A DNA stretch of 64,000 nt from the NCBI GenBank assembly GCA_038727095.1, contig JAVYWK010000004.1, positions 23,802 through 87,801 on the forward strand, given 5' to 3'. Shown in pieces: positions 23,841 to 54,986 of the stretch (positions are counted from its first letter, which is position 1; each line of letters begins with the position of its first letter). The notes beneath the pieces are model-generated. The model made no database searches and was not told the origin of the DNA. It saw only the letters and a list, made by a program, of their open reading frames with translations. The translations under genes and the position numbers were made by a program. This DNA comes from Thermofilaceae archaeon. GTDB lineage: Archaea > Thermoproteota > Thermoprotei > Thermofilales > Thermofilaceae.

Positions 23841-23849
23841 GGTGCCCCC

Positions 23850-26563: not shown

Positions 26564-26577
26564 AGAGCATGACCATA

Positions 26578-26982: not shown

Positions 26983-27927
26983 TTAGGCAGCTTTTACAGT
27001 AAATCTTAGATTAAAGGCGTTAGCAGGAGAAATGATGTCGCCGTCTTTAATAGGAACCCTTCCCTTTCCCCTAATATCCTCTCCATTTACGAAAGTTCCA
27101 TTCGTGCTCCCTTCATCGATTATTACAAAACTACCGCTGATATAGTCATAGTCGATCGTAAACTGGCCGCGCGGCATACGACGACTAATAAGAGAAAGGA
27201 CGCTTGATGGTACTATACCGGTGAAATCCTCCCTACCAAATCGCGCTGGAAGGCTGGTTATCGGAATCACTTTGTCCCCCAGCTCCAGCATCGCTACAAG
27301 CCTCATCGTCTCCCCACTAGGCGCGGGTACTGAAACAGTTGCACCAGGAACCCCTGTTACCACTGTTGGGCCTTCAACCGGTGCTACTCGCTCAGCCCCA
27401 GTAGGCGGCGGTTGGGGGGCAAGCGATGTTCTCCTCCGAAGAAGCACCACAGCGCCAACAGCAGCGAGAAGAACCACAGCTGGTATAATTGCCCAGATTA
27501 GCGGGAATTCTTCAATGACTTCAAATGGAAGATCCCCTTCTTCAAGCCTCCCAGTAGCTGGATCCCAAACTCTAACACGTATAGCATACTTTCCAGTAAC
27601 ATCCGTCGGTGCAATATCATACCTTGCTATTACCCTCTCAGCGTTCAACGCAACACGAGTGCGTGACAAAAGTGTAAGCGGTGTCCTACCAGCCTCAGGA
27701 GGGAAAAACAGTAAAACCTCGACTTCTATGGTTGCTCCAGTAATCGGTGGTCGTGCTACTACGTAAACCGTGTCCCCTCGTTTAAACTGGTTTTCCTCGG
27801 CTCCGATAGGGACTTTTGAGAGATAGAAGTACACGTCACGAAGAGTCACTAGAGGGGCAGCAGCTAAATAAACGGCGAAGAAGATTGAAAGGGTGATGAA
27901 TGCCGCAATTTTACTTATTTTCACCAT
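26983..27927 (-). CDS. Single-pass membrane protein: Ig-like ectodomain, TM, Pro/Thr linker, FHA domain
   Basis: Signal peptide; 'FKRGDTVYV...GKYAIRV'; TM plus RRR; 'FGREDF...ISRR...DEGSTNGTFVNG...IKDGDII'. Confidence 0.88.
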   Translation of the reverse strand: MVKISKIAAFITLSIFFAVYLAAAPLVTLRDVYFYLSKVPIGAEENQFKRGDTVYVVARPPITGATIEVEVLLFFPPEAGRTPLTLLSRTRVALNAERVIARYDIAPTDVTGKYAIRVRVWDPATGRLEEGDLPFEVIEEFPLIWAIIPAVVLLAAVGAVVLLRRRTSLAPQPPPTGAERVAPVEGPTVVTGVPGATVSVPAPSGETMRLVAMLELGDKVIPITSLPARFGREDFTGIVPSSVLSLISRRMPRGQFTIDYDYISGSFVIIDEGSTNGTFVNGEDIRGKGRVPIKDGDIISPANAFNLRFTVKAA

Positions 27928-28112
27928 CGATTAAAAAGAAAAGCAGATATATAAATGTTTTACGCTACAGAATTACAATTACCCAATTAGACAACATTAA
28001 GGCCGCGCACTAGTAATAGAGCAAATGGAAGCTCGTTTCTGCTGGAAGGATTAGACGAGCGAAACCTGTAGACTCACGAAGGCTAGTGTACTCGCTATGC
28101 AGTGCCTACGAT

Positions 28113-29354
28113 TTAAGCCGAGCTTTCCCTTATTCTAAAAGTTAATACTAAGTAAGGAGGATGTTTTAGAGACGAACCATAGGCTACGTATATGAGCGCC
28201 TTTTTCCCAAGTTCTACAGGCTGACTCTCAACACCTCTACCCTTCCACACCTCGATTAAATGGCCTTCAACGCGGATAGCTGTTCTATTAAGCGATCCTA
28301 AATCCTTGATAAACCATTTCCCGCCTTTATAAAATATTTCAAAATGGTTTCTAGAGATCCACTTGTACGGGTCTATCACTCTTACTTCCATAATATCTCC
28401 CCGCCTATCGACCACAACTTTCGCTCTCTTAGGTTCGATTGATGAAAACCCCGCACTCGTTTGCTCCTCTTTTTCAGCTAGCCTTCCGAAACGAACAACA
28501 GGTGCCTCAAGCGCGATTTCTTCGCCCAGTACTTCGAGTACTGGCACATCGCTTGGAAGACGCTTTTCCTCACCCTCGAGAGCCAAGATCATGTCTTTCG
28601 CTGATAGAAACCTATCTCCCGGATCCCAGCTCATTGCTTTCATCACAATTGACCTCGTCTCATCGCTTACATCTCGATTGAACATGCCAGGATCTGGAGG
28701 CGAAGGGTATCGCTGTTTTGGGTAGCCAGGCATCGCCAGCTGGGGTGGTTGACCTGTTAAAAGATAGAAGAGTAGAGCACCTGTGGACCAGATATCCGCT
28801 TGAGGGGAGGAAAGCCCGTTAAACTGCTCGGGCGCAGTGTAACCGCCCGGCGAATAAACGATCTCACTAATGCCTGAACGGTTAAAGTATGTGCTCGTCC
28901 CAAAGTCGATCACCTTCGCTGGGAAGAGCTCTACTGGTGTTATTACATTCTTTGGTTTTATATCTCTATGAACAACATTAAGCGAGTGAATGTAATCAAG
29001 AGCTAAAAGAACCTGCTCGATAACCTTCTTAGCTTCACGCTCGTCCAGTCTCCTGCGGAGTCGAAGATCTTCCGTGTTTAATCCTTGCACATATTCTAAA
29101 ACTAGAAAAGGAGTTGTCCCAATGCTGCCGCTATCAACATAAGACACCACGTGCGAGTGATTGAGCTTTAATAGTACTTCAATCTCATACTGCAATTTCG
29201 CCAGCGATACGGGGTCTCTCTTAGAAATTTTAACAACAACGTTACCTCTTGAGGAAGAAGCGAGGTAAACATCGCTCATCCCCCCACTGCCTAACAGCTG
29301 TAAAACGCGGTATTCCTCATGTTTACCAACGAGCGTGGAGCCAATTAGGCTCAT
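28113..29354 (-). CDS. Hanks-type Ser/Thr protein kinase with C-terminal FHA domain
   Basis: 'LGSGGMSDVY', 'VVVK', 'HRDIKPKN', 'DFG', 'GYTAPEQ', 'DIWSTG'; FHA 'FGR...ISRNHF...DLGSLNRT'. Confidence 0.95.
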   Translation of the reverse strand: MSLIGSTLVGKHEEYRVLQLLGSGGMSDVYLASSSRGNVVVKISKRDPVSLAKLQYEIEVLLKLNHSHVVSYVDSGSIGTTPFLVLEYVQGLNTEDLRLRRRLDEREAKKVIEQVLLALDYIHSLNVVHRDIKPKNVITPVELFPAKVIDFGTSTYFNRSGISEIVYSPGGYTAPEQFNGLSSPQADIWSTGALLFYLLTGQPPQLAMPGYPKQRYPSPPDPGMFNRDVSDETRSIVMKAMSWDPGDRFLSAKDMILALEGEEKRLPSDVPVLEVLGEEIALEAPVVRFGRLAEKEEQTSAGFSSIEPKRAKVVVDRRGDIMEVRVIDPYKWISRNHFEIFYKGGKWFIKDLGSLNRTAIRVEGHLIEVWKGRGVESQPVELGKKALIYVAYGSSLKHPPYLVLTFRIRESSA

Positions 29355-29788
29355 TTAAGTCATACCCTGAACTAAAGCCAAATTTATATATTTTTGCACT
29401 AAATAATAGCACGAATTTGGTACACAAATTTCTGTTTTCTTACTATAAAGATTCTTAAAAACTCTCTATAATCATCCGATTACATTCTTTTCTCTTGCCG
29501 TTTTTTTTAACAGCAGCAAAGCTAGAACATGATTGAATGCCCCACAATGCACCACGGTGAAACCAGATTTCGATGCAGCTTCTTAAGGACTGTCGCTTAG
29601 TATGGAGAAGCTTGCTACTACGACTATTTCTCTGTTACATAGCAGAGATCCCTAAAGTCGATTCTTACAGCATGATTGTAGTCAAAAAATTTAAAACGAA
29701 AAGCTACATCTTAATCACTATTAGTACAAGGATACACGATTATACTTTCCAAAAAAGGATTAATCCTCGTTTTCCGGTTTCGATACGC

Positions 29789-30418
29789 TTAGCCACTGAC
29801 TGTTCTGAAGACTAAGTTGATTACGCCTGCAGGGCTAATTACGTCTCCATCCTTAAGCTCCTGCATCCCCATACCTCTTATCTGCCTACCATTCAGCAGT
29901 GTACCATTGGTGCTGCTTGAGTCTTCAATATAGAATCGCCCTCCCCTGAACCTGATGATGAACTGCGGCCTACTTTGACTGATCGTATCAAGAAGCCCTG
30001 CTGGAACAATTCCGGCAAAATCGCTCCGGTAGAATGGTTGATCAATAGAGGAAACAATTAACCTACCGTTAGGAGCTTCAAGGTAAGCTAATGCCACTCT
30101 AGTGGTTGAAACCGGTTGAGCAACGACTCTTGTGGGAGAAGGAGCCGAAGGAATAGCAGCTGTTCCGCTAGGTTCAGTGACCGGCTGAACATAATGGGGA
30201 GCTTCTCGAGGCGTGGGGGCTCTTCTCTGCGCATTATAAATAAGCAAACCCCCCGCCGCCAGCATTATTAGTCCAATAAATAACATTGGAAGGCCGATGA
30301 TACCTCCTCCCGGAAAGCCACTGAGCATCAGACCAAAGAATATTCCTATAAGGGCAAGGATAATCAATATCACAGCGACGACTATACTGGCAGCAGTGGT
30401 ACCTCTCTCGCCCATCAA
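29789..30418 (-). CDS. Two-TM membrane protein with Pro/Thr linker and degenerate FHA domain
   Basis: Hydrophobic hairpin; 'FYRSDF...ISQ...DSSSTNGTLLNG...LKDGDVI'. Confidence 0.87.
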   Translation of the reverse strand: MMGERGTTAASIVVAVILIILALIGIFFGLMLSGFPGGGIIGLPMLFIGLIMLAAGGLLIYNAQRRAPTPREAPHYVQPVTEPSGTAAIPSAPSPTRVVAQPVSTTRVALAYLEAPNGRLIVSSIDQPFYRSDFAGIVPAGLLDTISQSRPQFIIRFRGGRFYIEDSSSTNGTLLNGRQIRGMGMQELKDGDVISPAGVINLVFRTVSG

Positions 30419-30550
30419 GAGCTAAATTCGTTAAGGGTTATATTTATATTTTTCTACGAGAAAATACATAGCGAATCACTCGGGCTTTTCCGACGTACAG
30501 AAGAATAAACATTAGCCATGCAGAGACTATTAATGTAATGAATATATTAT

Positions 30551-32716
30551 TTAAAAAGTTAATCTTTTAAGATTTTCTAACTTAATTTTTATTTTTTCGA
30601 TTTCTTTAATATACTCATTTTTTAACTGATCATAGATTTCATCAGATATCTGGCCTGATGCTTTCATCACTTCAAGCTTGTTGAGATACTCAACGTACTT
30701 ACTTAACTCGACCTCCAACTTCTTAATTTCTTGCTCCGCAACGATCGTCTTAGCAGCTGTTTCAGCTGTTGCTTGGATAATTTGTGTTTCACCTTTACTA
30801 GTTAACTTTAAGAATTTTGCAAAAATAGTTGCAACCTGCGGAGGAGGATGGAGTTTACCTACCCTCGTTAAGTAGACGAAGGCGAAGGTTCCTAGTACAA
30901 CAGCCACTGCAACGATAACGATGGCTAAAGCTGTGTAGTCAGTCCTCCATCGTGCTCTCACGTAAACGGGAGACTCAACCGATCCCTGGAGGTAACCCAT
31001 CCGCAAGTCCATCCAAACTTGTCTGAGACCTGTGGTCGAAAAACCATCTAGAACATAAGCTACAGGAAAGCCTACCCTCGATGCGGAAAGCCTAATCGTG
31101 ATTAAAGCACCTTCCTCAGCCCAGCAGCCATCACTCCAGAAGGAACAACCATCTATCGAGTACTCGACGTTAATGTCCGGGTCGAAGGATACCTTAAACG
31201 CTTTCTTCCATATAACCGTCAGTTTCTTAGGTGAATCCACTGTGAAACGGATGACAGGATCTCTTGAGGAAATATCACCTTCCCAACCTTTAAAGATAAT
31301 AACTTCATTTTCTTGTAAAGGTATCATCTCACGAGTAATTCTGACTTCAGCCGTTGAGCCAGCAGAGTACCAACCTCCTCCTACAGCGGCATTTAGTGGG
31401 TCTTCAACAGTTACCATATACTCTCTTATCCACTTAGCTTGTAAGTTAATTGGTTTGTCGACGGTTATCACTAACCTGTTTGATCTACTATACAGTCTTT
31501 CTTCGTCGTACCAGCCTTGAAACACATCTCTTACATCCGTTCTCACTGTTTTAAAATCGGCAGCGTTAGCTTCAATCTTCGTACCTTCACGGTACCAGCC
31601 TTCCACATCTTCATCCCCTCCCTTAATTGAGACGTAAAATTCTTTAAACTCATAGAGTCGAACAATTATCGACACGGGTTTTTCATTGCTATCGATGTTC
31701 ACGTCGACGGGGTTACCAAAGTACTCTTTCCCAGATATTATCCACTTATCGACTGAGTAAGCAATTCTCTCTGCAGAACTTACGAGCCTTGAGGGGGCAT
31801 CCACGCGGAGAGTATGCATACCAGCTTGCAACCAGTGCTCTCCAGGCGAGAAGGGACTACCATCGATGATAACCGTTGTATTCAGTACTACTTTTACCAT
31901 CTTTGTATAGTGGAAGGTAAGCTTCGCCGACTCTGAAGTTGTGAAAGAGCTTTGAGAAGCTACATACTTTACACCAGAACCTGCGCTAATCTCTGGATCC
32001 ACTGATACAGTGTAACTTGCTTTCTTGACAGTAACCTCTAGAGGTTGATTCAGTGCTGCCTTGCCTTTCAATGCTTTGTTAATGTACACTTGTGTCCCGA
32101 TTCCAGAAGGTAGACCTGAGACTTCAACTCTAATCGTGATAATTGGCGAGAAGTAGATTGTGTAGCGAAGTGGAGCTTGATCATAGGTGGGGTTAATCCA
32201 GTGTACCTCGTTAAAGCCTCGGGAAGTTGGAGGTGGATCAACGCTATGGAAAGGTATACTAAAGTACACATGCACTTCATCAATCCAGCCTCCTTGCGGT
32301 TTAAAAATGTCTTGAAAAGTTAATGAATCTAATTCATCGTTGTAAAAGCCTGACTCAGAAAGAGAGAAGCGAAGGGTAACATAAACCTTTCTTTCATTAT
32401 CATTAATACCGTAATCCCAAATCGAAAATCTACTTAACCTAAACATATATGCAATTCTATTTATTAAGCCTTGATAATAAAAATCTTTGTATTCATAAAA
32501 ACATGATTTCCATGATTCCCAATCAAAAACTATAGGTTTAAACCATGCCATAACGCGGACATCGTCACGACCGTACACCCAGATATCATTGCCCAGGTAC
32601 CGCGTAACTTCGCACATGGCTTGGGCCTGCGTCGAGAGAGCTAGTGCCGAGAATCGAAGTACGATTGCCAAGAGCAAGAAAGCGGGGATAGCGATGCATA
32701 AACGATGGATTTTCAC
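30551..32716 (-). CDS. Surface protein: ectodomain, beta-repeats, TM, cytoplasmic CdvA/SHOCT-like coiled coil
   Basis: Signal peptide; 'GWY...FxGW...VDxPxxLxAxW' repeats; TM; tail 'EYLNKLEVMKASGQISDEIYDQLKNEY'. Confidence 0.8.
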   Translation of the reverse strand: MKIHRLCIAIPAFLLLAIVLRFSALALSTQAQAMCEVTRYLGNDIWVYGRDDVRVMAWFKPIVFDWESWKSCFYEYKDFYYQGLINRIAYMFRLSRFSIWDYGINDNERKVYVTLRFSLSESGFYNDELDSLTFQDIFKPQGGWIDEVHVYFSIPFHSVDPPPTSRGFNEVHWINPTYDQAPLRYTIYFSPIITIRVEVSGLPSGIGTQVYINKALKGKAALNQPLEVTVKKASYTVSVDPEISAGSGVKYVASQSSFTTSESAKLTFHYTKMVKVVLNTTVIIDGSPFSPGEHWLQAGMHTLRVDAPSRLVSSAERIAYSVDKWIISGKEYFGNPVDVNIDSNEKPVSIIVRLYEFKEFYVSIKGGDEDVEGWYREGTKIEANAADFKTVRTDVRDVFQGWYDEERLYSRSNRLVITVDKPINLQAKWIREYMVTVEDPLNAAVGGGWYSAGSTAEVRITREMIPLQENEVIIFKGWEGDISSRDPVIRFTVDSPKKLTVIWKKAFKVSFDPDINVEYSIDGCSFWSDGCWAEEGALITIRLSASRVGFPVAYVLDGFSTTGLRQVWMDLRMGYLQGSVESPVYVRARWRTDYTALAIVIVAVAVVLGTFAFVYLTRVGKLHPPPQVATIFAKFLKLTSKGETQIIQATAETAAKTIVAEQEIKKLEVELSKYVEYLNKLEVMKASGQISDEIYDQLKNEYIKEIEKIKIKLENLKRLTF

Positions 32717-33162
32717 ATATTTAACCTTTCTGCCCTATATAAAAATTTTACTTTGTTAGTACTCCTAGATTACTGTTGTAGTTAATTTATACATTATCTT
32801 TTTTGATTACCTTGTTAAATAAAACATAAATATAGGGAATATTTAGATAATTAGTATCATAGAATCTATAAATATTTTAGTCACAATATTTTTATTTTTT
32901 ATTAATTATGAATAATTTTCTAATATATTAGCATTTCTAGTTAACAGTAAAATTACCAAAATTTATAAAAAATGACTAACTGGCCGTGCGTCTTTTACAA
33001 TCTTAATATTATGGAATTAACTTTCCGAAGTAAATGTTTGTATTTCAGAATTTTACTTAAACAATTCTTAGGCATTTTACATCATATAATGATTTCTCAT
33101 TGTTCGATTTCTGAAAATATTCTTTGGAAATTTTATGAATATACTAAGTAATTGATATACAG

Positions 33163-36576: not shown

Positions 36577-36607
36577 GCGGGGATCGCTGGAGGGCTGGTT
36601 TTGTGCT

Positions 36608-39600: not shown

Positions 39601-40168
39601 TCAATCCACGTAAGTTTTACAATTTAAACAATACTGTCGATTAATTAAACGTAAAATGACAACCTGTGCTCCACATTTTGGGCAAATCGAACGATTAGAC
39701 GCGGTACGTGCCAGACTGGAAGACTGCAACGCCACTGGCATCGAAACGGAAGGTGCCTTCGGAGGCCCGCTTAGAAGTAAAGAGTAGCTCGCGTGGAGCT
39801 CCTCGTCCAGCATGCGAAAAGAAAACGGACCAACTCTCCAGAAGCCTGCGAAAGTCAGCGAACCTTTCGACAGATAGGGAATCGGATCGTGCTATAGCAA
39901 GCCTATAAATAGCGATCAACTTGTCGATTTCAGCTTGAAATTCATCCATTGAAATCGTACTTCTTCTAGCTAAGCTTAACCGCCACTCATTCAGCATTCG
40001 CGCAAAGATATGGAGGGTTCCCCTGCTAGCGTTAGCGGTTGAGTACTTGGCAATAAACCAGTTAAATTGCGTGTTAAACAGCTTGGAAACGATACGATGA
40101 GTATCGACTACGTTGGAACTCTCAGTTCTCTCAGGCATGGTGGAATCCATCGTACAGCATAGATCCAT
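39601..40168 (-). pseudogene. Helical protein with C-terminal Zn ribbon, split by a 1-nt frameshift
   Basis: Removing one A from the A4 run at 39817-39820 joins the two ORFs (..WSVFF-RMLDEELH..), ending CPKCG-x12-YCLNCKTYVD. Confidence 0.6.
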
Positions 40169-44704: not shown

Positions 44705-46510
44705 GTGATACTGATGGAATTCTCGTCCAGCAAGATATCCTCATCGTTTTTGCTTTTCCCACTGTTCCGGAAAAAGATTTTTGTAAAATTGTTCAATGTT
44801 ATTATTTTATTACTATTAATGTTGCCTATAAATCGCAGTTCGATGTATGCTCTTGGCATATCAACTAGTAAAATCTTATCTCTTAGAGCTGAAAATCAAA
44901 TTACACTTACTCAAGCTTCTTCGATTTATAATGAAATCTTGTTTATCTCAGAGAAAGTGGCAACAAACGTAATAATAAATGCTGTCCCAGAAAGAGATGG
45001 ATATAAATGGCCCATTCAGTTTAGAAACACGTATTTCAATCCAGGATTTCACTCGGGCGCTGCAGGTGTTGGAACATTTCTCCTCTCGTTGTATGCCGCT
45101 ACGAGGAATACGACTTATCTTAAATACGCGGAGGGGGCAGCTAAATGGATAATCTCCATAGCAAAGAAGAATCCCGATGACTCTGTAACCTGGTGTTCAT
45201 ATGATGATGAAAAATGCTGGTTTTTAACACCAGATAAAGAGGTATCAGGGATCATAAAGTTCTTTCTACGATTACATAATATTACGGGAAATAATATATA
45301 TCTTGATTATGCAGAAAGAGGAGCAAAATGGATAATTAATAGTGCACTAGTAAAGGATCGTATAGGGGTGTACGTTTTATACAATCCGCCGAGACAGGCT
45401 GCTTTTGGAGTTTACAGCTATGTTCAGCGTGATGTTGGAACTTTGATGATAGATCTTTACATCATAACTAAGAATACGAAATATTTGGATACCGCTAAAT
45501 CTATAGGAGAATGGATTCTTTTTACTAGTGAATGTGATCAATACTTATGCAAATGGTACGATGATAGAGGGTATGGGAACATTTACACTATTGAAGGTGC
45601 TTCTCTCATAGCTGACTTTTTATATGAACTATACAAGGTCACAGGCGACCATAAATATATGCAAGTAGCTGAAAAAATCGTTAACTGGATAGAAAGACAA
45701 GGAAAAAGAATTGATAATTATAGAATAAAGTTCCCTAACCATAGAGGTAAGTACTTAACAGTTATAGATGGTTATTGGGATAGACCGTTTTTCCCTATGA
45801 CACCGGCAGATATCTTTGTAAAATCCTACCTGATTACAAAAAATGTTTCTCGCCTCGATATAGCCAAATCGTATGCAAATTGGTTGATCTCGTTATCCAG
45901 CATTGAAGGCGATCAAGCGAGAGTACCCTTCTCAGAAGAACAAAGATTATACCATGCATGGATCAACGCCCGTATATTTAATTTCATTATTCTTCTCTAT
46001 AACCAAACGAAAGAGTTAGTTTATTTAGAGTTCGCATCTAAACTTCTGAACTACATACTAAGTACAGCGGTAGAAGATAGGGGATTCAAGTGGCCCAGAC
46101 TTGATGGAAAAGCCTGGATTACTTTTGGACTGGGAGAAGGTTCGTGCGCTATTGGTTATTATTTGCTATCGTCGTTACCGTCTATGAGCATAGTCTCTCC
46201 CGCCAAGTATAGAGTTGATGTGGATTCTTCACCTAGGTTGGGAAGTGTAGAGGTAAACGGTGTTAGGGTTGGTTTGCCTTATTCGGACTGGTTTAAGGAA
46301 GGAGATACCATAAGCATAGCTGTTCAAAGCGTTATTTTCATTGAATCTTCTCCTAAAACGAGGAGGGCGTACGTATTCTCTGGATGGAATGATGGTACTA
46401 CGACCCCTATTCGATTGATTAAAGTTGATAAGCCGCTAAGCCTCGTAGCTATGTATCAGTTAACAGTTATGCACTTCGTAAATGTATACTGTAAATATGC
46501 AAGAAGCTGA
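44705..46510 (+). CDS. Secreted LanC-like (alpha/alpha toroid) protein; 5' part of a frameshifted surface protein
   Basis: 'GFHSGAAGVGTFLLSLY..T....YL..A...A.WI' repeats, then a beta-repeat like those in 30551-32716. The true start may be downstream of 44705. Confidence 0.75.
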   Translation: MILMEFSSSKISSSFLLFPLFRKKIFVKLFNVIILLLLMLPINRSSMYALGISTSKILSLRAENQITLTQASSIYNEILFISEKVATNVIINAVPERDGYKWPIQFRNTYFNPGFHSGAAGVGTFLLSLYAATRNTTYLKYAEGAAKWIISIAKKNPDDSVTWCSYDDEKCWFLTPDKEVSGIIKFFLRLHNITGNNIYLDYAERGAKWIINSALVKDRIGVYVLYNPPRQAAFGVYSYVQRDVGTLMIDLYIITKNTKYLDTAKSIGEWILFTSECDQYLCKWYDDRGYGNIYTIEGASLIADFLYELYKVTGDHKYMQVAEKIVNWIERQGKRIDNYRIKFPNHRGKYLTVIDGYWDRPFFPMTPADIFVKSYLITKNVSRLDIAKSYANWLISLSSIEGDQARVPFSEEQRLYHAWINARIFNFIILLYNQTKELVYLEFASKLLNYILSTAVEDRGFKWPRLDGKAWITFGLGEGSCAIGYYLLSSLPSMSIVSPAKYRVDVDSSPRLGSVEVNGVRVGLPYSDWFKEGDTISIAVQSVIFIESSPKTRRAYVFSGWNDGTTTPIRLIKVDKPLSLVAMYQLTVMHFVNVYCKYARS

Positions 46511-47036
46511 GAGAAGTGTTACAGGCTCGGGATGGTATAAGGAGGGAGAGAAAGCAAAAGTTTCCGCTGAACCCGTGATACCTGTTAGCGACAATGTCAG
46601 ACTGGTTTTCGTGGAGTGGGCTGGTTTAAGCTCTAAGTCGATTGAAGAGGTGCTAGTTAACTCCCCTAAGGAGTTGAAAGCTATCTACAAGAGACAGTAC
46701 CGCGTGATTGTCATTAAACCAGAGATCACTACGAGCGGCTTAACCGTTAAAACAATAATCTTTGAGGATTACTTAATAGAAAATTCCCTTCTTAGTTCGC
46801 TTCCTGATATTACCGTTGTTCCTCTGATAATAGTCGATAGATTTGTTGGATACGAAGAATCAGGTCGCTTTCTAGGGGAGCACTTGATTGTTGATAGGCC
46901 TCTACGTTTAACAGCGAGGTACCAGAGAGATTACACGGGGTTATTCGCTTTAATCGCACTAAGCGTTGTGCTAGGGTTATCCTTTTCGTATATAGGAAGG
47001 GTCTGCTTAAGAAGGGGGTCTTTGAATCGGCAGTAG
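46482..47036 (+). pseudogene. Frameshifted continuation (beta-repeats plus TM) of the LanC-like surface protein
   Basis: Begins mid-repeat ('VTGSGWYKEG'); ends 'RYQRDYTGL'-TM, parallel to 'RWRTDYTAL'-TM in 30551-32716. Confidence 0.7.
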
Positions 47037-47055
47037 CTGGTTCGAGTGCTGCAAC

Positions 47056-47253
47056 ATGGAAGCGGCTGAAAGTAAGATCAGAGAGTATCGAAATTTCCTA
47101 TTGAAGCTTGAACAATTGCATGAGAAGGGTGGGGTAACGGATGAAGTTTACCAAGAATTAAAGAAAATATATAGTAAAGAACTGGAGAAATACGAAGAAG
47201 AACTAAAGAAAATCAAAGGAAAATTAGATAAGATTAAAATACAGAAGTTTTAA
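47056..47253 (+). CDS. CdvA/SHOCT-like coiled coil, probably the detached tail of the upstream gene
   Basis: 'LLKLEQLHEKGGVTDEVYQELKKIYSKELEKYE', similar to the tail of 30551-32716. Confidence 0.65.
   Translation: MEAAESKIREYRNFLLKLEQLHEKGGVTDEVYQELKKIYSKELEKYEEELKKIKGKLDKIKIQKF
47101..47197 (+). repeat. 97-bp perfect inverted repeat, arm 1
   Basis: Exact reverse complement of 48314-48410. Confidence 0.95.
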
Positions 47254-47960: not shown

Positions 47961-48464
47961 TTATTTTGAGCCTGAATAGTAACCTGCTATTATCGATATT
48001 ATCGATACTATAAGTATGATTAGAGAAAGTATTGGATTCGATACAATAAATAATACTATAACCGTGATTAGGTAAAGCATTGGAATGCCAAGTACTATGG
48101 AAAAAAGTATGGTAAAAAGGATGAGAAGTATGTTTTTGTCCTTTATCCGATCTGAGTCACTTCTTTTTATTACTTTCGTTTTGCGAGGAGGTGAATACAC
48201 CTTAGTTCCCAGTACAGGCTCTGGTAATGCTGACGCTTGTAAGCCCTGTGTCACCCTTACAACTCGTGTTTGTTCCCCTCCTTCAAGCCTCTTCTTTAAC
48301 TCATCAAGTGCGACTTCGTATTTCTCCAGTTCTTTACTATATATTTTCTTTAATTCTTGGTAAACTTCATCCGTTACCCCACCCTTCTCATGCAATTGTT
48401 CAAGCTTCAACAAGTATTCTTTCAGCTCTCTAATTTTAGCCTCCAATGCCTCTATCTCGCTCAC
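47961..48464 (-). CDS. CdvA/SHOCT-like coiled coil, Thr-motif linker, two C-terminal TM helices
   Basis: Same 32-aa coil as 47056-47253; 'EQTRVV', 'GTKVY', 'KTKVI'; hydrophobic C-terminus; GGGGTGA site upstream. Confidence 0.8.
   Translation of the reverse strand: MSEIEALEAKIRELKEYLLKLEQLHEKGGVTDEVYQELKKIYSKELEKYEVALDELKKRLEGGEQTRVVRVTQGLQASALPEPVLGTKVYSPPRKTKVIKRSDSDRIKDKNILLILFTILFSIVLGIPMLYLITVIVLFIVSNPILSLIILIVSIISIIAGYYSGSK
48314..48410 (-). repeat. 97-bp perfect inverted repeat, arm 2
   Basis: Exact reverse complement of 47101-47197. Confidence 0.95.
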
Positions 48465-48962: not shown

Positions 48963-51900
48963 TTAGACTTTTTTACCGTAATTGGCTACTACTATTGCCA
49001 GATCCTTATAGTCTACTGTTCCATCCTCGTTTATGTCTGCATCATAATTGTACTCGGGCTGGCCGATCATGGATCCATATGATGATGTGAGGATGGCGAT
49101 ATCCCTGTAATTGACCTTCCAGTCCAAGTTTATGTCGCCAAGCAGTATCACTGTTAAGCGGAGAGGGTAGGTGAATGGAAGATAGCCCTCTTTAACCACG
49201 TTTATGTCGATCTTGTGGACGCCTGCGTCCAAGCCGGTTATTACAGTCGCGTAGGATCCGTCTCCTCTATCTTCGAGAAGGTGAACTTTTCCTCCTATTG
49301 TAGCTGTTGTGCTTGCGCCTTTAACGGCTTTTCCCTCGATATTGAAAGCGCGAACTACCACCATAAACGCTCTACCTGGCTTCAGCCTCGTGACGTTGAC
49401 GGTGGCAACGGCGAACAGGGCGTCAAAAGCGACACTGATCGGGATGTACACCCTGGAGGTAGCCACTGTGACCAATAAGCCGCCGGAGTATAGCCACAGG
49501 GAGGGGGACGGCGGCGCGGCGAACTTGATCCTTACGGGAATCTCCTGTCCCTCCTTCACGCTGAGGATCTCTTGGGGCTCTACTGACGCTACAACATCTT
49601 TTACATTGCCCACAACTGACACTTTAAGAGAGTGCAAGTCCATCGCTGCCTTGAGCTTCACTACAACCTCTTTGCTCTCTCCGACTCCCAGCTTCAAGTC
49701 CAGCCTATCAACGTTGGTGGTTATGCTCGGCTTCAGCAGCACCATACGGTACTCTAAACCTTGCTGTGGTGCTTCTACCCCCCGTACGTAGATCTTCCAG
49801 TCCCCCACTTCGGGGTTGTAGACAGAGACTGAGATGTAGCCAATATCTTCGGTGTAAACGACATTACTTTCGTAGAATGATAGCTTGTACCCGCTGGGGG
49901 AAACCAGCTCTACGCTCAACTTGCTCCCGCTGTAGGATAGCTTAACCCCAAGGTAGGGGGTTCCCGCGGACACGGTTGCTGAAACCTCCTTTATTTCTCC
50001 GACTCTAATTCTATCCACTATAACTCTTTCAGCAGCTAAGCCGATGATCCTCTGAGATAAGCTGATGTAGAGCCTCTGAAGGTCTTCAGGACTAGGCGAG
50101 TAAAAGTACTGGCCACCAGTCATCTCCGCTACTTTTCTCATCCTATCCTCATCTATATCCTTCTTTTCCCCGAAACCAAGGGTGTATACTCGCACCCCCA
50201 GCGAGCGAGCTCTATTAGCGGCTTCCTCCGGAGTATGTGTACCAGCGTTGTGCATTCCATCGGTCAGCAGAATGACCGCTCTTACTCCCGTTACGGCCGT
50301 TAAATGATCCAGCGCTAGCCATAACCCATCCCCAATTGCCGTACTTCCTCCGGGCTCAAGCTGGTTTATCGCTTCATATAGCACACTTCTATTACTAGTC
50401 AGGTCGCTCACAAGTTGAGCTATAGTAGAGAACTTGACTAGACCCACTCGATCACTCCTCGATATTAAGGAGACAAAGCTCTTGGCAGCTTGCTTTGCCG
50501 CATCGATTTTCCTCGCACCCTTGAACTGGTCGGCCATGCTTCCGGAGACGTCGATGACGAGGAACACATTGATTCCACCTTCTGTAGATTCTTTCCCTCC
50601 CCTTCTCCTAGCCATGTCGATTCTGTACTTGTCGAACTCACCGTACACCAGGCATGTGTAACTTATCATATTGGCTATTATTGAATCGTATTCTTTTTTA
50701 TATTCTTTGAGCATATTTTCAAAATTGTTACGTATCTCATTTGCATTAGTAAGTCCCCATAATTTTAATAATTCTGAATACATATTCCCGAGCGTGTTAT
50801 CGCTGAGACTGAGTATTCCTTCGCAATACTCGATGAGAATCGTGTATAGTAGGTACTTTAAGTATAGCAAGGATAGTACGTTGTCCAACGTTGGTATTTC
50901 TTCATTATTAAGCAGTTTGCTAAGTTTATGATGCATGACGTGGAAAAGTTCTCTAGCTAGTAAAGAGTGAGATGTGTGCAAGCCGAGGAAGGTTGTAAGA
51001 TCGTCATTGAGCGAGACGATGTAATCCTTTATAGCGCTAATCATCGAGCCTATCGCTATGTTCCTTAGGCTTCTTAACGCGTAATACTGTACGAAGGTGT
51101 TTAAATAATCGGGTTGCAACTGGCCGCTCCATAATCCTGATGATAAACGGGAAAACTCAGCGAAATGTCCAACGGGGTTTTGACTGTTACGGAATAACAG
51201 GTATGCCCCAGTGTTTCTCAATAACAATCCTCCCACTAGACTCTCGATCCCCTTAATGAGGTCTGGATTGGCTGCGGCGGTAGCGTACGCAACCATGAAA
51301 TAATACTCGATCAAATCCGAGGATTTGTCTAGAGAATCCATCCCCTTTCTAATACTTTTAATGAGTTCCTTGAATTTTTCATCAGTTGTTTTAGTTATGA
51401 TATTTTGTAGTTCCCCAAGGGCTTCATCATCATAGCTTAGCATAAGGGCTAAAGCCCAAAATAGCTTGGGATTTTTTTCTGGACTTAACTTGAACTTCTC
51501 TTGTAGTTTATTCAAGTCTGAAACTAAATCAAGAGTGCACTTGGCTATCAGTAGCGCCCAGCCGATTACACCGGCAGGAGGTACCAAGACGGCAAGTATG
51601 ATTCCGGTTCCAATGTTGATGAAAATGATCTTCCATTTTTCCCTTTCGTATAGTTGCAAACCTGTCACGTAAGATTGATTCCAGTAGAGTTTGAGATTAT
51701 GGTAGCTATGCACCTCATCAAAGTCTTTTTCGAGTGGTTTGTGTTTGTCGAAAGCGAGTAGCGATATTAGCTGAAGAGCAAGGTCATCGGCTTTAGGTGT
51801 TGTCATCCAGTCATCCCCCAGAACTACCGATTTGTGACTCTGCGAGTATATTATGTAATGACCGGAAGAAAGGTAATACACACTTAGTTCAACGTCTCCA

Positions 51901-52103
51901 AACTTGAGGTTTCTTTTTTCAGTTATTGTCTCTCCATTCAATAAGTACTTTTTAACCTCTTCATCTACGCTATCAATAGAGCGCGCTAGAGGTTGAGGGA
52001 TTACTGTGGATTGCAGTATCAGTAGTACCAGTATGATCGCCATGAGTCTCTTAGATCCTTTTCCCTCAAGTTTGACCAAGGCTTTGAAACTAAGCATTTC
52101 CAC
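48963..52103 (-). CDS. Secreted protein: unknown helical domain, vWA, Ig-like domains, dockerin
   Basis: Signal peptide; MIDAS 'DVSGSM...GSTAIGDG...ILLTDG'; C-terminal duplicated Ca-binding loops 'GDINLDWKVNYRDI' and 'ADINEDGTVDYKDL'. Confidence 0.88.
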   Translation of the reverse strand: MEMLSFKALVKLEGKGSKRLMAIILVLLILQSTVIPQPLARSIDSVDEEVKKYLLNGETITEKRNLKFGDVELSVYYLSSGHYIIYSQSHKSVVLGDDWMTTPKADDLALQLISLLAFDKHKPLEKDFDEVHSYHNLKLYWNQSYVTGLQLYEREKWKIIFINIGTGIILAVLVPPAGVIGWALLIAKCTLDLVSDLNKLQEKFKLSPEKNPKLFWALALMLSYDDEALGELQNIITKTTDEKFKELIKSIRKGMDSLDKSSDLIEYYFMVAYATAAANPDLIKGIESLVGGLLLRNTGAYLLFRNSQNPVGHFAEFSRLSSGLWSGQLQPDYLNTFVQYYALRSLRNIAIGSMISAIKDYIVSLNDDLTTFLGLHTSHSLLARELFHVMHHKLSKLLNNEEIPTLDNVLSLLYLKYLLYTILIEYCEGILSLSDNTLGNMYSELLKLWGLTNANEIRNNFENMLKEYKKEYDSIIANMISYTCLVYGEFDKYRIDMARRRGGKESTEGGINVFLVIDVSGSMADQFKGARKIDAAKQAAKSFVSLISRSDRVGLVKFSTIAQLVSDLTSNRSVLYEAINQLEPGGSTAIGDGLWLALDHLTAVTGVRAVILLTDGMHNAGTHTPEEAANRARSLGVRVYTLGFGEKKDIDEDRMRKVAEMTGGQYFYSPSPEDLQRLYISLSQRIIGLAAERVIVDRIRVGEIKEVSATVSAGTPYLGVKLSYSGSKLSVELVSPSGYKLSFYESNVVYTEDIGYISVSVYNPEVGDWKIYVRGVEAPQQGLEYRMVLLKPSITTNVDRLDLKLGVGESKEVVVKLKAAMDLHSLKVSVVGNVKDVVASVEPQEILSVKEGQEIPVRIKFAAPPSPSLWLYSGGLLVTVATSRVYIPISVAFDALFAVATVNVTRLKPGRAFMVVVRAFNIEGKAVKGASTTATIGGKVHLLEDRGDGSYATVITGLDAGVHKIDINVVKEGYLPFTYPLRLTVILLGDINLDWKVNYRDIAILTSSYGSMIGQPEYNYDADINEDGTVDYKDLAIVVANYGKKV

Positions 52104-52992
52104 TCACCCTGAAGTAGAGATCGAAAGCTCCTTGGACGCTGATCGAATCCCCGTTATTGAGTTTCACGTACCCTCTGCCTTTTATCGGGATACTGTTGAC
52201 CAAGGTGGGGTTTGTGCTGTAGGCATCAATTATGTACCATCCATCGCGGCCTTTAACTATCCTGAACTGCCCACCCTTAGATCTCCTCGTGATGTAGGCC
52301 AGTTTATCAGGAGCTAAGAAGCCAGCGAAGTCCTCCCTTCCGTACACTCTATCCTTGCTGGTTGTGCGGAACACAACTCTACCGCTCCTATCGATGAGGC
52401 TATAAGCTGTAGCCGTTTTCTTCAGCTGTTGCACGGCTAGCGTTGCTGCAACAACTGCTAGGGTTGAGAGAACTAGGACTACAATCCACGTAAAGGGAAG
52501 GCCGCTTTCTCTTTTGACTATGCTGTAGGGTGTAGCTCTCCTTGTACTTACTCTCGCCGTGTTTGGCTCAAGAAGTACTTGCAGGTCGTTTCCCTTGGCA
52601 TCGGCGGCCACAAGGTAGATGAGCGTCACGCTAGCTGGTGCGTCTAGCTTGTACCTGAATTTGAGCTCAGCTATAACTGTCTCATTAGGCTGAGTTTTTA
52701 AAGTGTAAAAAACGTACGCTTTCTGCGTTTCCAGTATTACCCATTCGTTGACGGGGGTGACGTTTAGAAGTTCTAGTGAATCTGTGGTGTATGATAGGTT
52801 AAATTCACCGGCTTTTACGAGGCTTCCCCCCTCAAGTATAACCAGCTTCAGTATGAATATACCACCCGGTTCAACTTCGACCCCTTCGGGGATGAGTCCA
52901 GCTTTGACACTGATAATGGGCTGTGAAAAGGAAACGGTGAGGATTGTTAGCAACAGCGTGCAAGTAAAGATACTCTTCCCCCCCATTAACAC
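52090..52992 (-). CDS. Cohesin-like ectodomain, TM, FHA domain
   Basis: 'VEPGGIFILKLVI...KAGEFNLSYTTDSLELLNV...IAELKF...AADAKGN' follows the cohesin pattern; TM; FHA 'YGREDF...ITRR...DAYSTNPTLVN...LNNGDSI'. Confidence 0.8.
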   Translation of the reverse strand: MLMGGKSIFTCTLLLTILTVSFSQPIISVKAGLIPEGVEVEPGGIFILKLVILEGGSLVKAGEFNLSYTTDSLELLNVTPVNEWVILETQKAYVFYTLKTQPNETVIAELKFRYKLDAPASVTLIYLVAADAKGNDLQVLLEPNTARVSTRRATPYSIVKRESGLPFTWIVVLVLSTLAVVAATLAVQQLKKTATAYSLIDRSGRVVFRTTSKDRVYGREDFAGFLAPDKLAYITRRSKGGQFRIVKGRDGWYIIDAYSTNPTLVNSIPIKGRGYVKLNNGDSISVQGAFDLYFRVSGNA

Positions 52993-53181
52993 CCCCTAGC
53001 TTCAGTTAGGTCGATTTAAGTTTGAACCTAAACCGAGAAATCCTTGAAAAGGTATTAACTTCCTCCATCCTTCTTTGCGGTCTGCTTTAAGCAAAGGATG
53101 GAGAGTAATCGAATTGACCAGCAGAAGAATTCCATTTTTCAGTGGATACGCTATTTCCATGCTCTCGATAGTAAAATAGGT

Positions 53182-53202
53182 TTAAGGGTTATATATAACC
53201 TT
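53182..53202. promoter_or_regulatory. Palindromic TATA element upstream of the cohesin-FHA/vWA-dockerin operon
   Basis: GGTTATATATAACC is a perfect palindrome; TTAAGGGTTATAT also occurs upstream of 29789-30418 (30431-30443). Confidence 0.5.
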
Positions 53203-53281
53203 CGTTTTAGTTAAACTTTTAAATCCAATAAAGGATTCGTCGCATACGCTCAAAATAACTCTGATATTAGCGACAGAGAGT

Positions 53282-54412
53282 TTAAGAAGGAAGTTCCCTT
53301 AGGATCTCCAGAAGCCTAGGGATGTTGTAGAGGGCTGGTCTTTCCTCTCTTATCTCGCCCGTTAGTTTCTGGAGAACTCGTAGCCCTGCGCCGATTAGGT
53401 CAAGAGCTTCGCCGATAGAACGTCGTGTTTCCTCGTTTATACCATCCATCGATAGGCTACTTAATCTATCATGAAGCGACTCCAACTCCTTCAACAGGTT
53501 CTCACCAGCTTCGGGAGTTTTCAACTCGTTTCCTAGAGCTTCTACCCTTCCTCTGAGCTCCTGTATCATCTTTTCTAAGCGTGCAATCTCGATACGGTAC
53601 TTCCCCTCCCCTTCAATAAGAGCTTTGGCCTTGAAAATCTGCAAGGATTTCTCGGCTTGATTCAACTCGTCTACCAGCTTTTTAAGTAAGGCTTCACGCT
53701 CCTTCGCGATAGCATCGGGTTGCTGTGGAAATCCAGCCTTGCTGGCAAGCCGCAGAATCCTCTGTGCAAGCTCCCTCGATTTTTTCTCCAAATCCTCTAG
53801 TTCAGCCCTGTGGTTGACCCCCCTTATCCTCGAATCAAGCTCTAACGCCTCGCTGCTTACTCTAAGCCTTTCAAGCTCATCCCTGATCATCCTTAGAGCT
53901 GTAATCAGTGCTCTTGCATAATTCTTCAATGCATTCCCAACTTTCAGGAATATACCCGTGTATACTTTTAGCAACTCGCTGTAAACCTTATCATCAACCT
54001 TACCCTTTTCTTCTCTCAGCTTCTCCAGACGATCGCATTCCGTTCTGAAAGCTTTCAATAGATCCGTGAGGTTTTGAGATGGTAGAGGCTCCAGATCCTT
54101 CGTCGCGTCGGGGCTGGTGACGTCAACTATCTCCCTCCACTTTTTACTGTACTCTGTTTCAGTTATCAAGCCCATAATGAAGGATGCATCGAGCTCGTTC
54201 AGCCTAGATTTCAGCCTGTTAACGACCGAATCTGAGGGAGGGATCTTAAGAATGGTTAAGTAGCCTTCATCCTCCAACATGAAGAGAGCTTCTTCAAGCT
54301 CTCTCCTTGACACTCTCAACCTCTCTAGAGCATCGTCAATTTTGAAGACCACCCTTTCACTCTTAAACTCTTTCAAATAATTGAGCAGTCTTGATTTCAA
54401 GTCCTCCATCAT
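53282..54412 (-). CDS. Soluble protein: winged helix plus CdvA-like coiled coils
   Basis: 'RLLNYLK...ALERLRVSRRELEEALFMLEDEGYL', then 'LNELDASFIMGLITETEY' and 'LEKLREEKGKVDDKVYSELLKVY' with long heptad runs. Confidence 0.75.
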   Translation of the reverse strand: MMEDLKSRLLNYLKEFKSERVVFKIDDALERLRVSRRELEEALFMLEDEGYLTILKIPPSDSVVNRLKSRLNELDASFIMGLITETEYSKKWREIVDVTSPDATKDLEPLPSQNLTDLLKAFRTECDRLEKLREEKGKVDDKVYSELLKVYTGIFLKVGNALKNYARALITALRMIRDELERLRVSSEALELDSRIRGVNHRAELEDLEKKSRELAQRILRLASKAGFPQQPDAIAKEREALLKKLVDELNQAEKSLQIFKAKALIEGEGKYRIEIARLEKMIQELRGRVEALGNELKTPEAGENLLKELESLHDRLSSLSMDGINEETRRSIGEALDLIGAGLRVLQKLTGEIREERPALYNIPRLLEILRELPS

Positions 54413-54728
54413 GTTCAGCTAAAAAAGAGAAGATAAAAACTTCGCTCTACGAAGCTAATGATGCTCACCATTGGTTAAAGACCCCTACATAAGGAGGCAG
54501 AGAACAAGAGTACGGTGAACCTCTCGCGGTAGTATGATCCTCTACCCCCACAGTTTCGAGAGTTCTCTCAAGGCTTGCGTACTCGCTAGACCTCTTTTTT
54601 GCTCTTCTCGAAAATTGCTTTAATGGCCACGTTAAAATTGCCCTAAGGGCTGCTAGTAACCATCCAAGTTAAGGCTCTGAGCGGAGCTTTTGTCAGTGAT
54701 GAGGGTTAAAAAGGTGTAAGGTTGAAGG

Positions 54729-54986
54729 ATGGGTGTGAGTTCAGAATACGTAGAAGTGCTTTTAAGGAAAAAGCCAGTAGAGGATGAATGCGTGGTTCTC
54801 CTCAAAGGAGAAGGGGTCTGCAAAATCGTTAAAATATACAGTGTTTCGGGGGTCAGCCTGCGTGATACTGGAAAGCCAACGACCCCCTCAGGGCCAGTAT
54901 GTCCTTACTGCGGAGGTAAGCCTATGCTTCTGCGCAGTATTGGTAGATGGTATTGTTTTAATTGTAAGAAATACATTTTCCAGTGA
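54729..54986 (+). CDS. Small Zn-ribbon protein
   Basis: C-terminal CPYCG-x12-YCFNCKKYIF. Confidence 0.7.
   Translation: MGVSSEYVEVLLRKKPVEDECVVLLKGEGVCKIVKIYSVSGVSLRDTGKPTTPSGPVCPYCGGKPMLLRSIGRWYCFNCKKYIFQ

Follow-up and report, generated by a model that had tools for sequence, protein, structure and literature searches.

What is known of serine/threonine phosphorylation in archaea comes mainly from the Arn network of Sulfolobus, which is soluble, and how signals travel from their cell surface into the cytoplasm is still largely an open matter. The archaellum network of Sulfolobus acidocaldarius includes ArnA and ArnB, the kinases ArnC and ArnD and a phosphatase (available part of PMC6509490); ArnA joins a Zn ribbon to an FHA domain, ArnB is a vWA protein, and the FHA domain binds the phosphorylated Thr-rich region of its vWA partner (available parts of PMC5007285 and PMC4858521). 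The locus described here lies in a 64,000-nucleotide stretch of DNA from a Thermofilaceae archaeon (the window; assembly GCA_038727095.1, contig JAVYWK010000004.1, positions 23,802 to 87,801 of the forward strand). Between positions 26983 and 54986 of the window are genes for a kinase with an FHA domain, a PP2C phosphatase, three membrane-anchored FHA proteins, a vWA-dockerin protein and several surface, Zn-ribbon and coiled-coil proteins; together they make a compact, conserved candidate for such signalling, with a kinase, a phosphatase, four FHA readers and a short list of candidate phospho-site tails. Like the Arn network, the locus belongs to the Thermoproteota and combines FHA, vWA, Zn ribbon, Hanks-type kinase and phosphatase; however, the Arn proteins are soluble and ArnA carries its Zn ribbon and FHA domain on one chain, whereas here the Zn ribbons (g11 and g21) are separate proteins, FHA domains are fused to transmembrane (TM) anchors and ectodomains, one of them a cohesin, the kinase itself bears an FHA domain, and the phosphatase is a PP2C. 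The vWA protein (g18) differs as well in having TM segments, three β-sandwich domains and a dockerin. Neither the ArnA architecture (Zn ribbon and FHA in one soluble protein) nor that of ArnB (a cytoplasmic vWA protein with a phosphorylated C-terminal region) occurs in the window, and a cytoplasmic vWA-linker-FHA protein is seen only in a distant genome, G101. A direct sequence link to ArnA was rejected: the profile of the g19 family retrieves no ArnA chain from the PDB at E ≤ 1, and generic FHA chains only (Pml1 and others).

[quoted passage not shown] After the action of PpkA the protein Fha binds a phosphothreonine of the membrane protein TssL, and the pathway resembles the locus in that a Hanks kinase and a PP2C phosphatase (PppA) control FHA binding to a cytoplasmic phosphothreonine of a membrane protein, leading to assembly of an envelope complex (available part of PMC3953482). 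Here, in contrast, the kinase is soluble, the FHA proteins are the ones anchored in the membrane, the system is archaeal, and T6SS offers no counterpart of the cohesin-dockerin and coil-tail proteins; T6SS families are absent from the Pfam matches of the window's open reading frames (ORFs), and the likeness is mechanistic only. Phosphorylation-dependent clustering is a feature of Rv1747, an FHA-bearing ABC transporter of Mycobacterium tuberculosis. Its linker threonines are phosphorylated by PknF, and the common ground is an FHA membrane protein with an unstructured, Thr-containing linker and a neighbouring kinase (available part of PMC8339232); Rv1747 is however a transporter with two FHA domains, whereas here the FHA domains follow anchors of the single-pass or hairpin kind with sensor-like ectodomains, and different FHA and tail proteins are encoded side by side. 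The cohesin fold of g19 and the two-repeat dockerin of g18 recall non-cellulosomal cohesin-dockerin pairs such as that of Archaeoglobus fulgidus (2xdh); they differ in that the g19 cohesin is joined via a TM helix to a cytoplasmic FHA domain, an arrangement seen only in 10 archaeal relatives. In haloarchaea, FHA-CdvA-like fusions are found beside Vps4, ESCRT-III, a kinase and a phosphatase, and Thermoproteales have Zn ribbon-coil-CdvA-like proteins (available part of Makarova et al. 2024, PMC11188069). Neighbourhoods of FHA, vWA, kinase and PP2C genes are a known theme; new are the cohesin-TM-FHA fusion, which would link a putative cohesin-dockerin clip with phosphothreonine signalling, the membrane FHA readers with differing ectodomains, and the kinase-FHA, PP2C and tail-protein set as a mobile cluster. 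An earlier sequence-only reading of this DNA knew of no characterised system with this architecture, and full-text literature searches agree in finding no published description of the cluster or of the cohesin-TM-FHA architecture, the supplements of PMC5898192, PMC4858521 and PMC11188069, which may list arCOG neighbourhoods, lying outside their scope.

Protein domains were called by Pfam scans of the window's ORFs, and TM segments and signal peptides by hydropathy. The kinase, g02, is a soluble 413-aa protein (28113..29354 (-)) with a C-terminal FHA domain (4.9e-8) and no TM segment; its Pkinase match (3e-39, 135.5 bits) and the catalytic motifs in its translation (VVKISK with the Lys, HRDIKPKN, DFG, APE) place it by sequence among the Hanks-type Ser/Thr kinases. 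The 416-aa g12 (40943..42193 (+)) combines a ~170-aa N-terminal domain with a predicted PP2C phosphatase domain (PF00481, 6e-17, 62.6 bits; PP2C_2, 1.3e-14), the metal-site motifs RNNED, DGAGGH, GDSR, DGLSD and GGYDN being present in the translation; its NCBIfam Stp1 score of 207.9 bits falls below the equivalog cut-off of 230, and an NCBIfam scan of the cluster proteins gave nothing above cut-offs. The three non-kinase FHA proteins differ in what precedes the FHA domain. The 314-aa g01 (26983..27927 (-)) has a signal or anchor segment, a β-rich ectodomain of ~105 aa, a TM helix at 135-166, a Pro/Thr-rich linker and a C-terminal FHA domain (4.5e-10); g03 (209 aa, 29789..30418 (-)) has a hairpin of two TM helices without an ectodomain, a Pro/Thr linker and an FHA domain (6e-11); g19 carries a cohesin-like ectodomain and an FHA domain (9.3e-6). 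All four FHA proteins score 26.4-43.1 bits against the curated PF00498 cut-off of 20.7, so that the writer kinase-FHA, the PP2C eraser and the three membrane-anchored readers, one of them without an ectodomain, are borne out as the sequence-only reading had named them; the Ig-like outer part that it gave g01 stays a candidate fold.

FHA domains contact phosphothreonine through the Arg of a Gly-Arg pair, a Ser or Thr, and an Asn. In the g19 family G218, R219, T235, R236, S259 and N261 are invariant in all ten sequences; the GR, S and N positions are also seen in g01 and in the kinase FHA domain, while g03 has YRS for GR and lacks the His. A signal or anchor segment and one TM helix stand ahead of the FHA domain in g01 and g19, and the two-helix hairpin does so in g03; by hydropathy all FHA domains and coil segments lie on one side of the membrane, behind the last TM helix, and this side is taken to be the cytoplasm because the kinase works there.

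The 300-aa g19 (52090..52992 (-)) consists of a signal peptide, an ectodomain at residues 28-150, a TM helix at 162-190 and the FHA domain. The Pfam Cohesin model does not match g19; an AlphaFold2 (AF2) model from a 10-member alignment, with a mean predicted local distance difference test (pLDDT) of 81.8 and values >87 over residues 28-150, shows a β-sandwich over 28-150, followed by a TM helix (168-191) and an FHA sandwich (196-297). When the PDB was searched with this model by Foldseek, the first ~50 matches were all cohesins (E to 1e-8, probability 1.00, target TM-score 0.6-0.74), among them the non-cellulosomal cohesin of A. fulgidus (PDB 2xdh, E 4.5e-7). The modelled ectodomain thus has a cohesin fold, and the cohesin-like outside part proposed for the third FHA protein from sequence is upheld.

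The partner gene g18 (48963..52103 (-)), which overlaps g19 by 14 nt, encodes a 1046-aa protein with an N-terminal TM segment, an all-α domain of ~500 aa that includes a hydrophobic PP hairpin, a vWA domain (2.9e-23) with an intact metal-ion-dependent adhesion site (MIDAS), three β-sandwich domains and a dockerin (Dockerin_1, 7.8e-7; 29.6 bits vs a cut-off of 22.9) made of two Ca-binding repeats, DINLDWKVNYRD and DINEDGTVDYKD. The earlier description of g18 as a secreted vWA-dockerin protein holds for both domains; 'secreted' is doubtful, given the N-terminal TM segment and the hydrophobic hairpin. The AF2 model of g18 has a mean pLDDT of 60.7, with low confidence for the N-terminal 370 residues and the dockerin. 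One dockerin per genome was found in the window's own genome (G000), namely that of g18, and in G019, a genome of the same family and another genus; G002 (same genus) and G010, both without the island, have none. Because this dockerin is the only one in the genome, because the same is true in G019, and because island-less relatives have none, a dedicated cohesin-dockerin pair of g19 and g18 is probably the natural reading of these sequences. Complex prediction of the g19 cohesin (22-160) with the g18 dockerin (975-1046) gave a score of 0.11 (mark 0.32), which is used neither for nor against binding.

Co-occurrence of these genes elsewhere was the ground on which the sequence-only reading had staked its proposal, and homologues of nearly all of them are found together in G019 and in G231, a genome of another family in the same phylum. 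G019 is a complete genome in a single contig of 1.63 Mb, and may therefore come from a cultured strain. Its cluster of 16.5 kb holds two Zn-ribbon proteins, homologues of g01 (47% identity), g20 (28%), PP2C (38%), g19 (35%), kinase-FHA (53%) and g03 (62%), as well as a coil-motif membrane protein and homologues of g04 (28%) and g18 (33%); the genes for the kinase, the cohesin-TM-FHA protein and PP2C overlap at their ends through start and stop codons. The 22.5-kb contig of G231 (GC 38%) has the same set in a different order, including homologues of g03 (51%) and g12 (44%), and adds a fourth membrane FHA protein and eight coil-motif proteins. By sequence comparison, then, the accessory genes are a conserved co-occurring set whose order is shuffled across G000, G019 and G231.

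More widely, kinase-FHA orthologues (E ≤ 1e-40) occur in 9 of 401 phylum genomes; four carriers belong to the window's own taxonomic order, namely G019 (also among the nine), G024, G037 and G031. Ten related contexts were compared (G019, G231, G060, G101, G115, G117, G114, G024, G037 and G031; several contigs are short, and G099 was left out): an FHA protein stands beside the kinase in 10/10, with g01 orthologues adjoining the kinase-FHA in 10/10, a g04-like repeat surface protein in 7/10 and PP2C in 5/10. A simpler core of kinase-FHA, membrane FHA protein and repeat surface protein, often joined by PP2C, is present in 9 of the 401 Thermoproteota genomes sampled; besides the full clusters it is found, with a Thr-rich tail on the surface protein and with or without PP2C, in six further genomes. 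The more specialised members are rarer. Full-length g18 is present in 2/120 class genomes and in 3/401 of the phylum sample (a weak 59-residue match being discounted), and all three genomes with g18 have an adjoining kinase-FHA. The N-terminal 505 aa of g18 have 4 relatives among 5.8 billion proteins and 11 matches in 1.84 billion (1.84e9) representatives, of which eight span the whole N-domain (827-1073 aa, seven of them 1018-1073 aa), two are fragments and one is weak and repetitive. A contig scan with the g18 MIDAS pattern, with 80 loci listed, matched only residues ~400-800, mostly in bacteria and never at full length, and is uninformative on distribution. The g19 family counts 10 relatives in 5.8e9 proteins, which by their source names include Thermofilaceae (91% identical), Desulfurococcaceae (75%), Ignisphaera (65%) and Infirmifilum (37%).

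A maximum-likelihood tree built from 12 kinases groups those of the three full-cluster genomes, which come from two families, in one clade with 100/100 support, and the f3 and f15 versions form clades of their own. Because this clade crosses families, the GC content is low and the cluster is absent from near-identical relatives, the sequences indicate that the full cluster moved horizontally; low GC and the g19 identities suggest a low-GC lineage like Ignisphaera or Desulfurococcaceae as its source, the direction being inferred. The cluster would then be an exchangeable surface-plus-signalling cassette, carried by only part of hot-spring populations. A variant on the theme was observed in G101, where a 520-aa protein (C1 (L122) 12540-14102 (+)) combines a cytoplasmic vWA domain, a T/P/Q-rich linker and an FHA domain; it adjoins kinase-FHA, PP2C, a membrane FHA protein and a small FHA protein, and resembles ArnB and ArnA in one chain.

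The locus is a GC mosaic, with 43-47% at 26-34 kb, 63-65% at 34-38 kb and 36-46% at 40-56 kb in a genome of ~57%. It had been taken for one 28-kb island, a view that does not stand: the span consists of two accessory low-GC segments (26554-33187 and 39167 to ~56 kb) around a native block. This follows from the pattern of identity with G002, which is 96-97% identical at the DNA level to window positions 20257-26553 and 33188-39166, and from absences in the same-genus genomes, since DNA at 39167-56000 has matches in 0/4 of them and the kinase-FHA has none in those four; for the vWA-dockerin protein they give only generic vWA domain matches, in two genomes. Between its two matching stretches G002 has, instead of g01-g04, a single 652-aa glycosidase-like gene (contig C24 (L019) 7508-9466 (+)) of high GC with a weak match to the GH42 β-galactosidase family (E 3.4e-4); at the other junction (window 39166) its contig stops exactly. 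The native block (33163-39250 (-), GC 63%) encodes an ABC ATPase, an FtsX/MacB permease, a DUF11/CARDB surface protein, a 159-aa membrane protein, DUF58 and MoxR (AAA_3); the proteins are 90-99% identical in G002, the block is present in 4/4 same-genus genomes, and the G019 and G231 clusters hold no homologues of it. It has the make-up of the archaeal MoxR-DUF58(vWA)-Ig-like S-layer protein module described as a 'putative secretion system' (available part of Makarova et al. 2015, PMC5898192), with the difference that the copy here is native to the genus, inside the span but outside the FHA cluster.

Evidence from public sequencing runs consists of contigs, with depth summed over all organisms, the small-share runs X18-X23 being left aside, and one run, X6, may be the source sample. 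Contigs of X6 bridge junctions 26553/4 and 33187/8, so that at least one public run bears the junctions out; loose contig ends in X1 and X6 continue into island-less sequence, and in runs X1 and X5 the accessory parts have a summed contig depth several times below that of the native parts. A search for tRNA genes, Rfam matches and direct repeats at the borders found none, and therefore no integration mechanism was identified.

The cytoplasmic tails provide the sole pointer to the substrates of the kinase and the ligands of the FHA domains. The three full clusters supply 18 such stretches, either juxtamembrane tails or linkers between TM and FHA, and their 737 residues include 72 Thr vs 32 Ser. 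The pattern T-x-x-[ILVMY] is observed 34 times vs 16.1 ± 3.4 in composition-preserving shuffles (n=5000), of which 0/5000 reach 34; the narrower [EGQ]T-x-x-[ILVMY] is observed 21 times vs 3.3 ± 1.7 and is present in 13/18 tails. Motifs of the ET-x-V type are also found in the g04-like tails of G037, G060 and G101, and a native paralogue on contig C44 has the tail motifs ETKVV/ETRVA. FHA domains often prefer a hydrophobic residue at position +3, and the enrichment of T-x-x-hydrophobic in the tails suggests, by sequence, that these may be FHA ligands.

Several further surface proteins accompany the signalling genes. In the left segment, g04 (721 aa, 30551..32716 (-)) has a signal peptide, a repeat ectodomain of ~560 aa, a TM helix at 590-620 and a cytoplasmic tail of ~100 aa with GETQII/AET motifs and the coil motif (E 4e-18 with the coil profile described below); it belongs to no Pfam family, and homologues lie beside the kinase in G019, G231, G037, G060, G101, G115 and G117. 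Across the second segment, g14 and g15 (601 and 184 aa, 44705..47036 (+)) are two overlapping ORFs for an anchored (α/α)6 LanC-like or glycosidase-like ectodomain, repeats and a TM helix. For g14, Pfam gives LANC_like (1.7e-9), GH76 and GH127 matches, and the NCBIfam scan the LanL/LanM cyclase region (1e-15, none above cut-off); g15 aligns with the repeat region of g04-like proteins. The repeats of g04, g14 and g15 bear a resemblance to B-repeats of the InlB-like kind, but that label is not upheld, since Pfam shows no such family at E ≤ 0.01. Together with g16, the three frames at 44705-47253 (+) show the build of one ectodomain-repeat-TM-coil protein, for which single-ORF equivalents exist in G019 (1117 aa) and G231 (608 aa); the split may reflect a decayed gene or assembly errors. 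The 542-aa g13 (42633..44261 (+)), of no Pfam family, has a signal peptide, an ectodomain rich in NxS/T, a TM helix and a short acidic tail ending in DLG. Its membership in the cluster is uncertain, and BLAST finds no homologue of it in either G019 or G231; a protein of 565 aa in the latter (L109:1088-2785 (-)) has the same build and an acidic tail that likewise ends in DLG, without BLAST similarity, and the DLG end of both is possibly a C-terminal docking peptide.

Two Zn ribbons of the CxxC...CxxC type had been noted from sequence and are retained, with weak Pfam matches and homologues in related clusters. The 70-aa g11 (39601..39813 (-), CPKCG...CLNC) has weak DZR/S27a matches and homologues in the G019 and G231 clusters; the 85-aa g21 (54729..54986 (+), CPYCG...CFNC) has weak Zn-ribbon matches and homologues in G019, G231 and G024. 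A related arrangement is seen 5 kb from the kinase-FHA of G024, where a 136-aa protein (G024:C17 (L015+L016) 24731-25141 (+)) ends in a Zn ribbon CPxCG...WYCxNCxKY as in g11 and g21; its N-terminal part looks like a possible PRC barrel.

Four proteins had been grouped by what was called a CdvA/SHOCT-like coil. That all four share a motif is correct: 13 segments from the three clusters follow YL-x-KLE-x5-G-x-[IV]-[ST]-[DE]-x2-Y-x2-LK-x-EY, and a hidden Markov model (HMM) of these segments matches g16, g17, g04 and, weakly, g20 in the window's genome. The 65-aa g16 (47056..47253 (+)) is the coil motif alone (7.8e-19); g17 (167 aa, 47961..48464 (-)) has the motif (1e-18), a Thr-rich linker (QTRVV, GTKVY) and two C-terminal TM helices. 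The N-terminus of g17 (48285-48464 (-)) and g16 are inverted copies, 74-82% identical, separated by a 0.7-kb gap without an ORF of at least 60 aa. The 376-aa g20 (53282..54412 (-)) is soluble, with a possible N-terminal winged helix and a long coiled coil containing degenerate copies of the motif (3.9e-4); no Pfam family matches it at E 0.01, weak MCM4_WHD/TrmB matches occur in g20 and its homologues (28% identical in G019, 26% in G231), and a protein atlas search with g20 and g04 yielded no usable match. The family labels, in contrast, were rejected. CdvA (PF18822) matches in the island reach 15.4-18.2 bits in the genome search and at best 20.5 in the protein scan (g16) against a cut-off of 30; the model has no match above cut-off in the genome, and equally weak matches in 10/14 control genomes, E. 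coli included. SHOCT (PF09851) matches one of ten coil proteins or segments, at E 0.36 and 11.1 bits vs a cut-off of 27. Outside the island the coil HMM finds a NosD-like repeat surface protein, an 893-aa surface protein and a 264-aa Cys-rich protein. Because native surface proteins beyond the island carry it, the coil motif is a module of general use in the cytoplasmic tails of these archaea's surface proteins and not an island-specific scaffold. The native coil-motif proteins lie at C44:6689-9082, C7:22067-22858 and C8:47686-53624 of G000; an adjoining FtsX-like permease of 1089 aa (C8) is the genome's best CdvA match, with a score of 27 bits that is still under the cut-off.

These observations can be joined in a model in which a surface complex is clustered through FHA domains, with the kinase promoting this and the phosphatase undoing it, the whole forming a membrane-spanning phosphothreonine module; we regard this as evenly poised between right and wrong. 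Several single-pass membrane proteins would form the complex, their ectodomains comprising the cohesin, the small β domain, large repeats and the LanC-like toroid, and g18 would be clipped to g19 through dockerin and cohesin, with its MIDAS outside as the part that binds a ligand or contact. Inside the cell the soluble kinase-FHA would phosphorylate the Thr of T-x-x-I/V/L motifs in juxtamembrane tails and linkers, and those phosphothreonines would be bound in trans by the FHA domains that the kinase and the three membrane proteins carry. Phosphorylation would thus lead the complex to cluster or assemble and recruit more kinase, the coil motif adding oligomerisation, until PP2C reset the system; candidates for the output are the Zn-ribbon proteins and the winged-helix/coiled-coil protein g20. 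The receptor-like circuit of the sequence-only reading survives here in part, as the topology fits a transmembrane link while the CdvA/ESCRT membrane scaffold attached to it is unsupported. A bolder extension, possible but doubtful, is an integrin-like archaeal device for outside-in adhesion, in which the MIDAS vWA protein is held by its dockerin on the cohesin-TM-FHA receptor and binding of a ligand or cell leads to tail phosphorylation and a membrane-proximal FHA-phosphothreonine cluster; if true, no earlier transmembrane phosphothreonine receptor complex would be on record for archaea, and this one would be mobile between Thermofilaceae-like and Ignisphaera/Desulfurococcaceae-like lineages.

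Several points weigh against the clustering model. Every step of its phosphorylation scheme is put together from sequence, the cohesin-dockerin contact is putative, and the Pfam scans show no evident output domain in the cluster. The topology of g18 is ambiguous: if residues 156-191 are one TM helix and not a hairpin, its vWA domain and dockerin would be cytoplasmic. The vWA partner in G101 is cytoplasmic, and therefore an extracellular vWA is not general in the wider family. The narrower [EGQ]T motif was defined after inspection of the data, and tails that are homologous do not count as independent. Nor is the coil motif specific to the island. Contig depth, finally, suggests that a minority of the population carries the island, which would therefore be dispensable.

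Other explanations account for parts of the same evidence. The shared vocabulary of FHA, vWA, Zn ribbon, eukaryotic-type protein kinase and phosphatase would suit an Arn-like cytoplasmic regulator, a phospho-controlled repressor or activator complex that sets the expression of surface structures while the membrane anchors only localise it; ArnA/ArnB biology (available parts of PMC5007285 and PMC4858521) provides the precedent, P0014 is a Zn ribbon-linker-FHA protein whose FHA domain is 50% identical to that of g19, and in G101 a cytoplasmic vWA-T/P linker-FHA protein adjoins the kinase-FHA. We nevertheless think it unlikely, as Zn ribbons and FHA domains sit on separate proteins in the window, all three non-kinase FHA proteins are membrane-anchored, g18 has a dockerin and TM segments, no ArnA chain of the PDB is retrieved with the g19-family profile at E ≤ 1, and no DNA-binding domain is confirmed. 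The membrane proteins could instead serve as receptors at which the kinase, as a sensor switch, detects attachment or entry of a virus and triggers protection, in an anti-virus or inter-cell conflict system. The island is accessory DNA of low GC with a patchy spread over taxa, and a minority of the population carries it; it has AbiEi/AbiEii at its border and a DUF1156/DUF499/helicase cluster 15 kb upstream, and the kinase domain matches PADLOC kinase models (PD-T4-6, 1e-48; mad6); however, that match is to the generic kinase domain alone, nine of the ten island proteins scanned have no PADLOC match, the conserved set lacks a nuclease, protease, pore or NTPase effector, and most members are surface proteins, and this account too has little likelihood in our view.

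The coil proteins were the basis of the proposal that a kinase/FHA-driven, CdvA-like coiled-coil scaffold recruits ESCRT-III for membrane remodelling, secretion or division. Haloarchaeal FHA-CdvA-like proteins and the Zn ribbon-coil-CdvA-like proteins of Thermoproteales are precedents (available part of PMC11188069), and g16 and g17 match CdvA weakly over model positions 6-47; yet the matches of 15-20 bits are no stronger than those in the controls, no PRC barrel is found among the Pfam matches of the window's ORFs, Snf7/ESCRT-III has no match in G000, G019, G060 or G101 and only 20.7 bits in G231, and the coil motif is shared with native surface proteins and the FtsX-like permease, all of which makes the scaffold very improbable. 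There may also be no system at all: variable islands often carry envelope genes, and a strain-variable island of unrelated ones could have taken on the signalling cassette by chance, as the unconserved gene order and the lack of clear counterparts of g13 and g14 in other clusters would allow. Against this, three genomes from two families have ~11 co-occurring gene families at protein identities of 26-57%, too diverged therefore for recent block transfer without something to keep the set united; signalling genes overlap surface genes at start and stop codons, the g18 N-domain family always occurs in the same architecture, and every genome with g18 (3/3) has the adjoining kinase-FHA. Chance association is accordingly quite improbable, and the phosphothreonine clustering model remains the reading we prefer.

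At the right border of the accessory DNA (55517-56780 (-)) are genes for an AbiEi-like antitoxin (weak, E 7e-4) and an AbiEii nucleotidyltransferase toxin (E 2.3e-16). Some 15 kb upstream of the island, four large genes of defence-type look stand in a row at 1630-12325 (+): a DUF1156 methyltransferase-like protein (993 aa), DUF499 (1133 aa, E 3e-236), an SNF2/ResIII helicase with NOV_C (997 aa) and a metallo-β-lactamase-fold protein. The gene directly left of the island (25889-26563 (+)) is peroxiredoxin-like by eye. In the metatranscriptome run X17, contigs match g01, with 3 differences over 800 nt, and also fall on the kinase, on the region of the Zn ribbon and on PP2C, with a word depth of 3-43 there (0-43 across island bins, those with little or no RNA cover, such as 32671-33337 and 40008-40674, being left uninterpreted) vs 2156 on the peroxiredoxin bin; these RNA-library contigs are a weak hint of transcription of the island genes.

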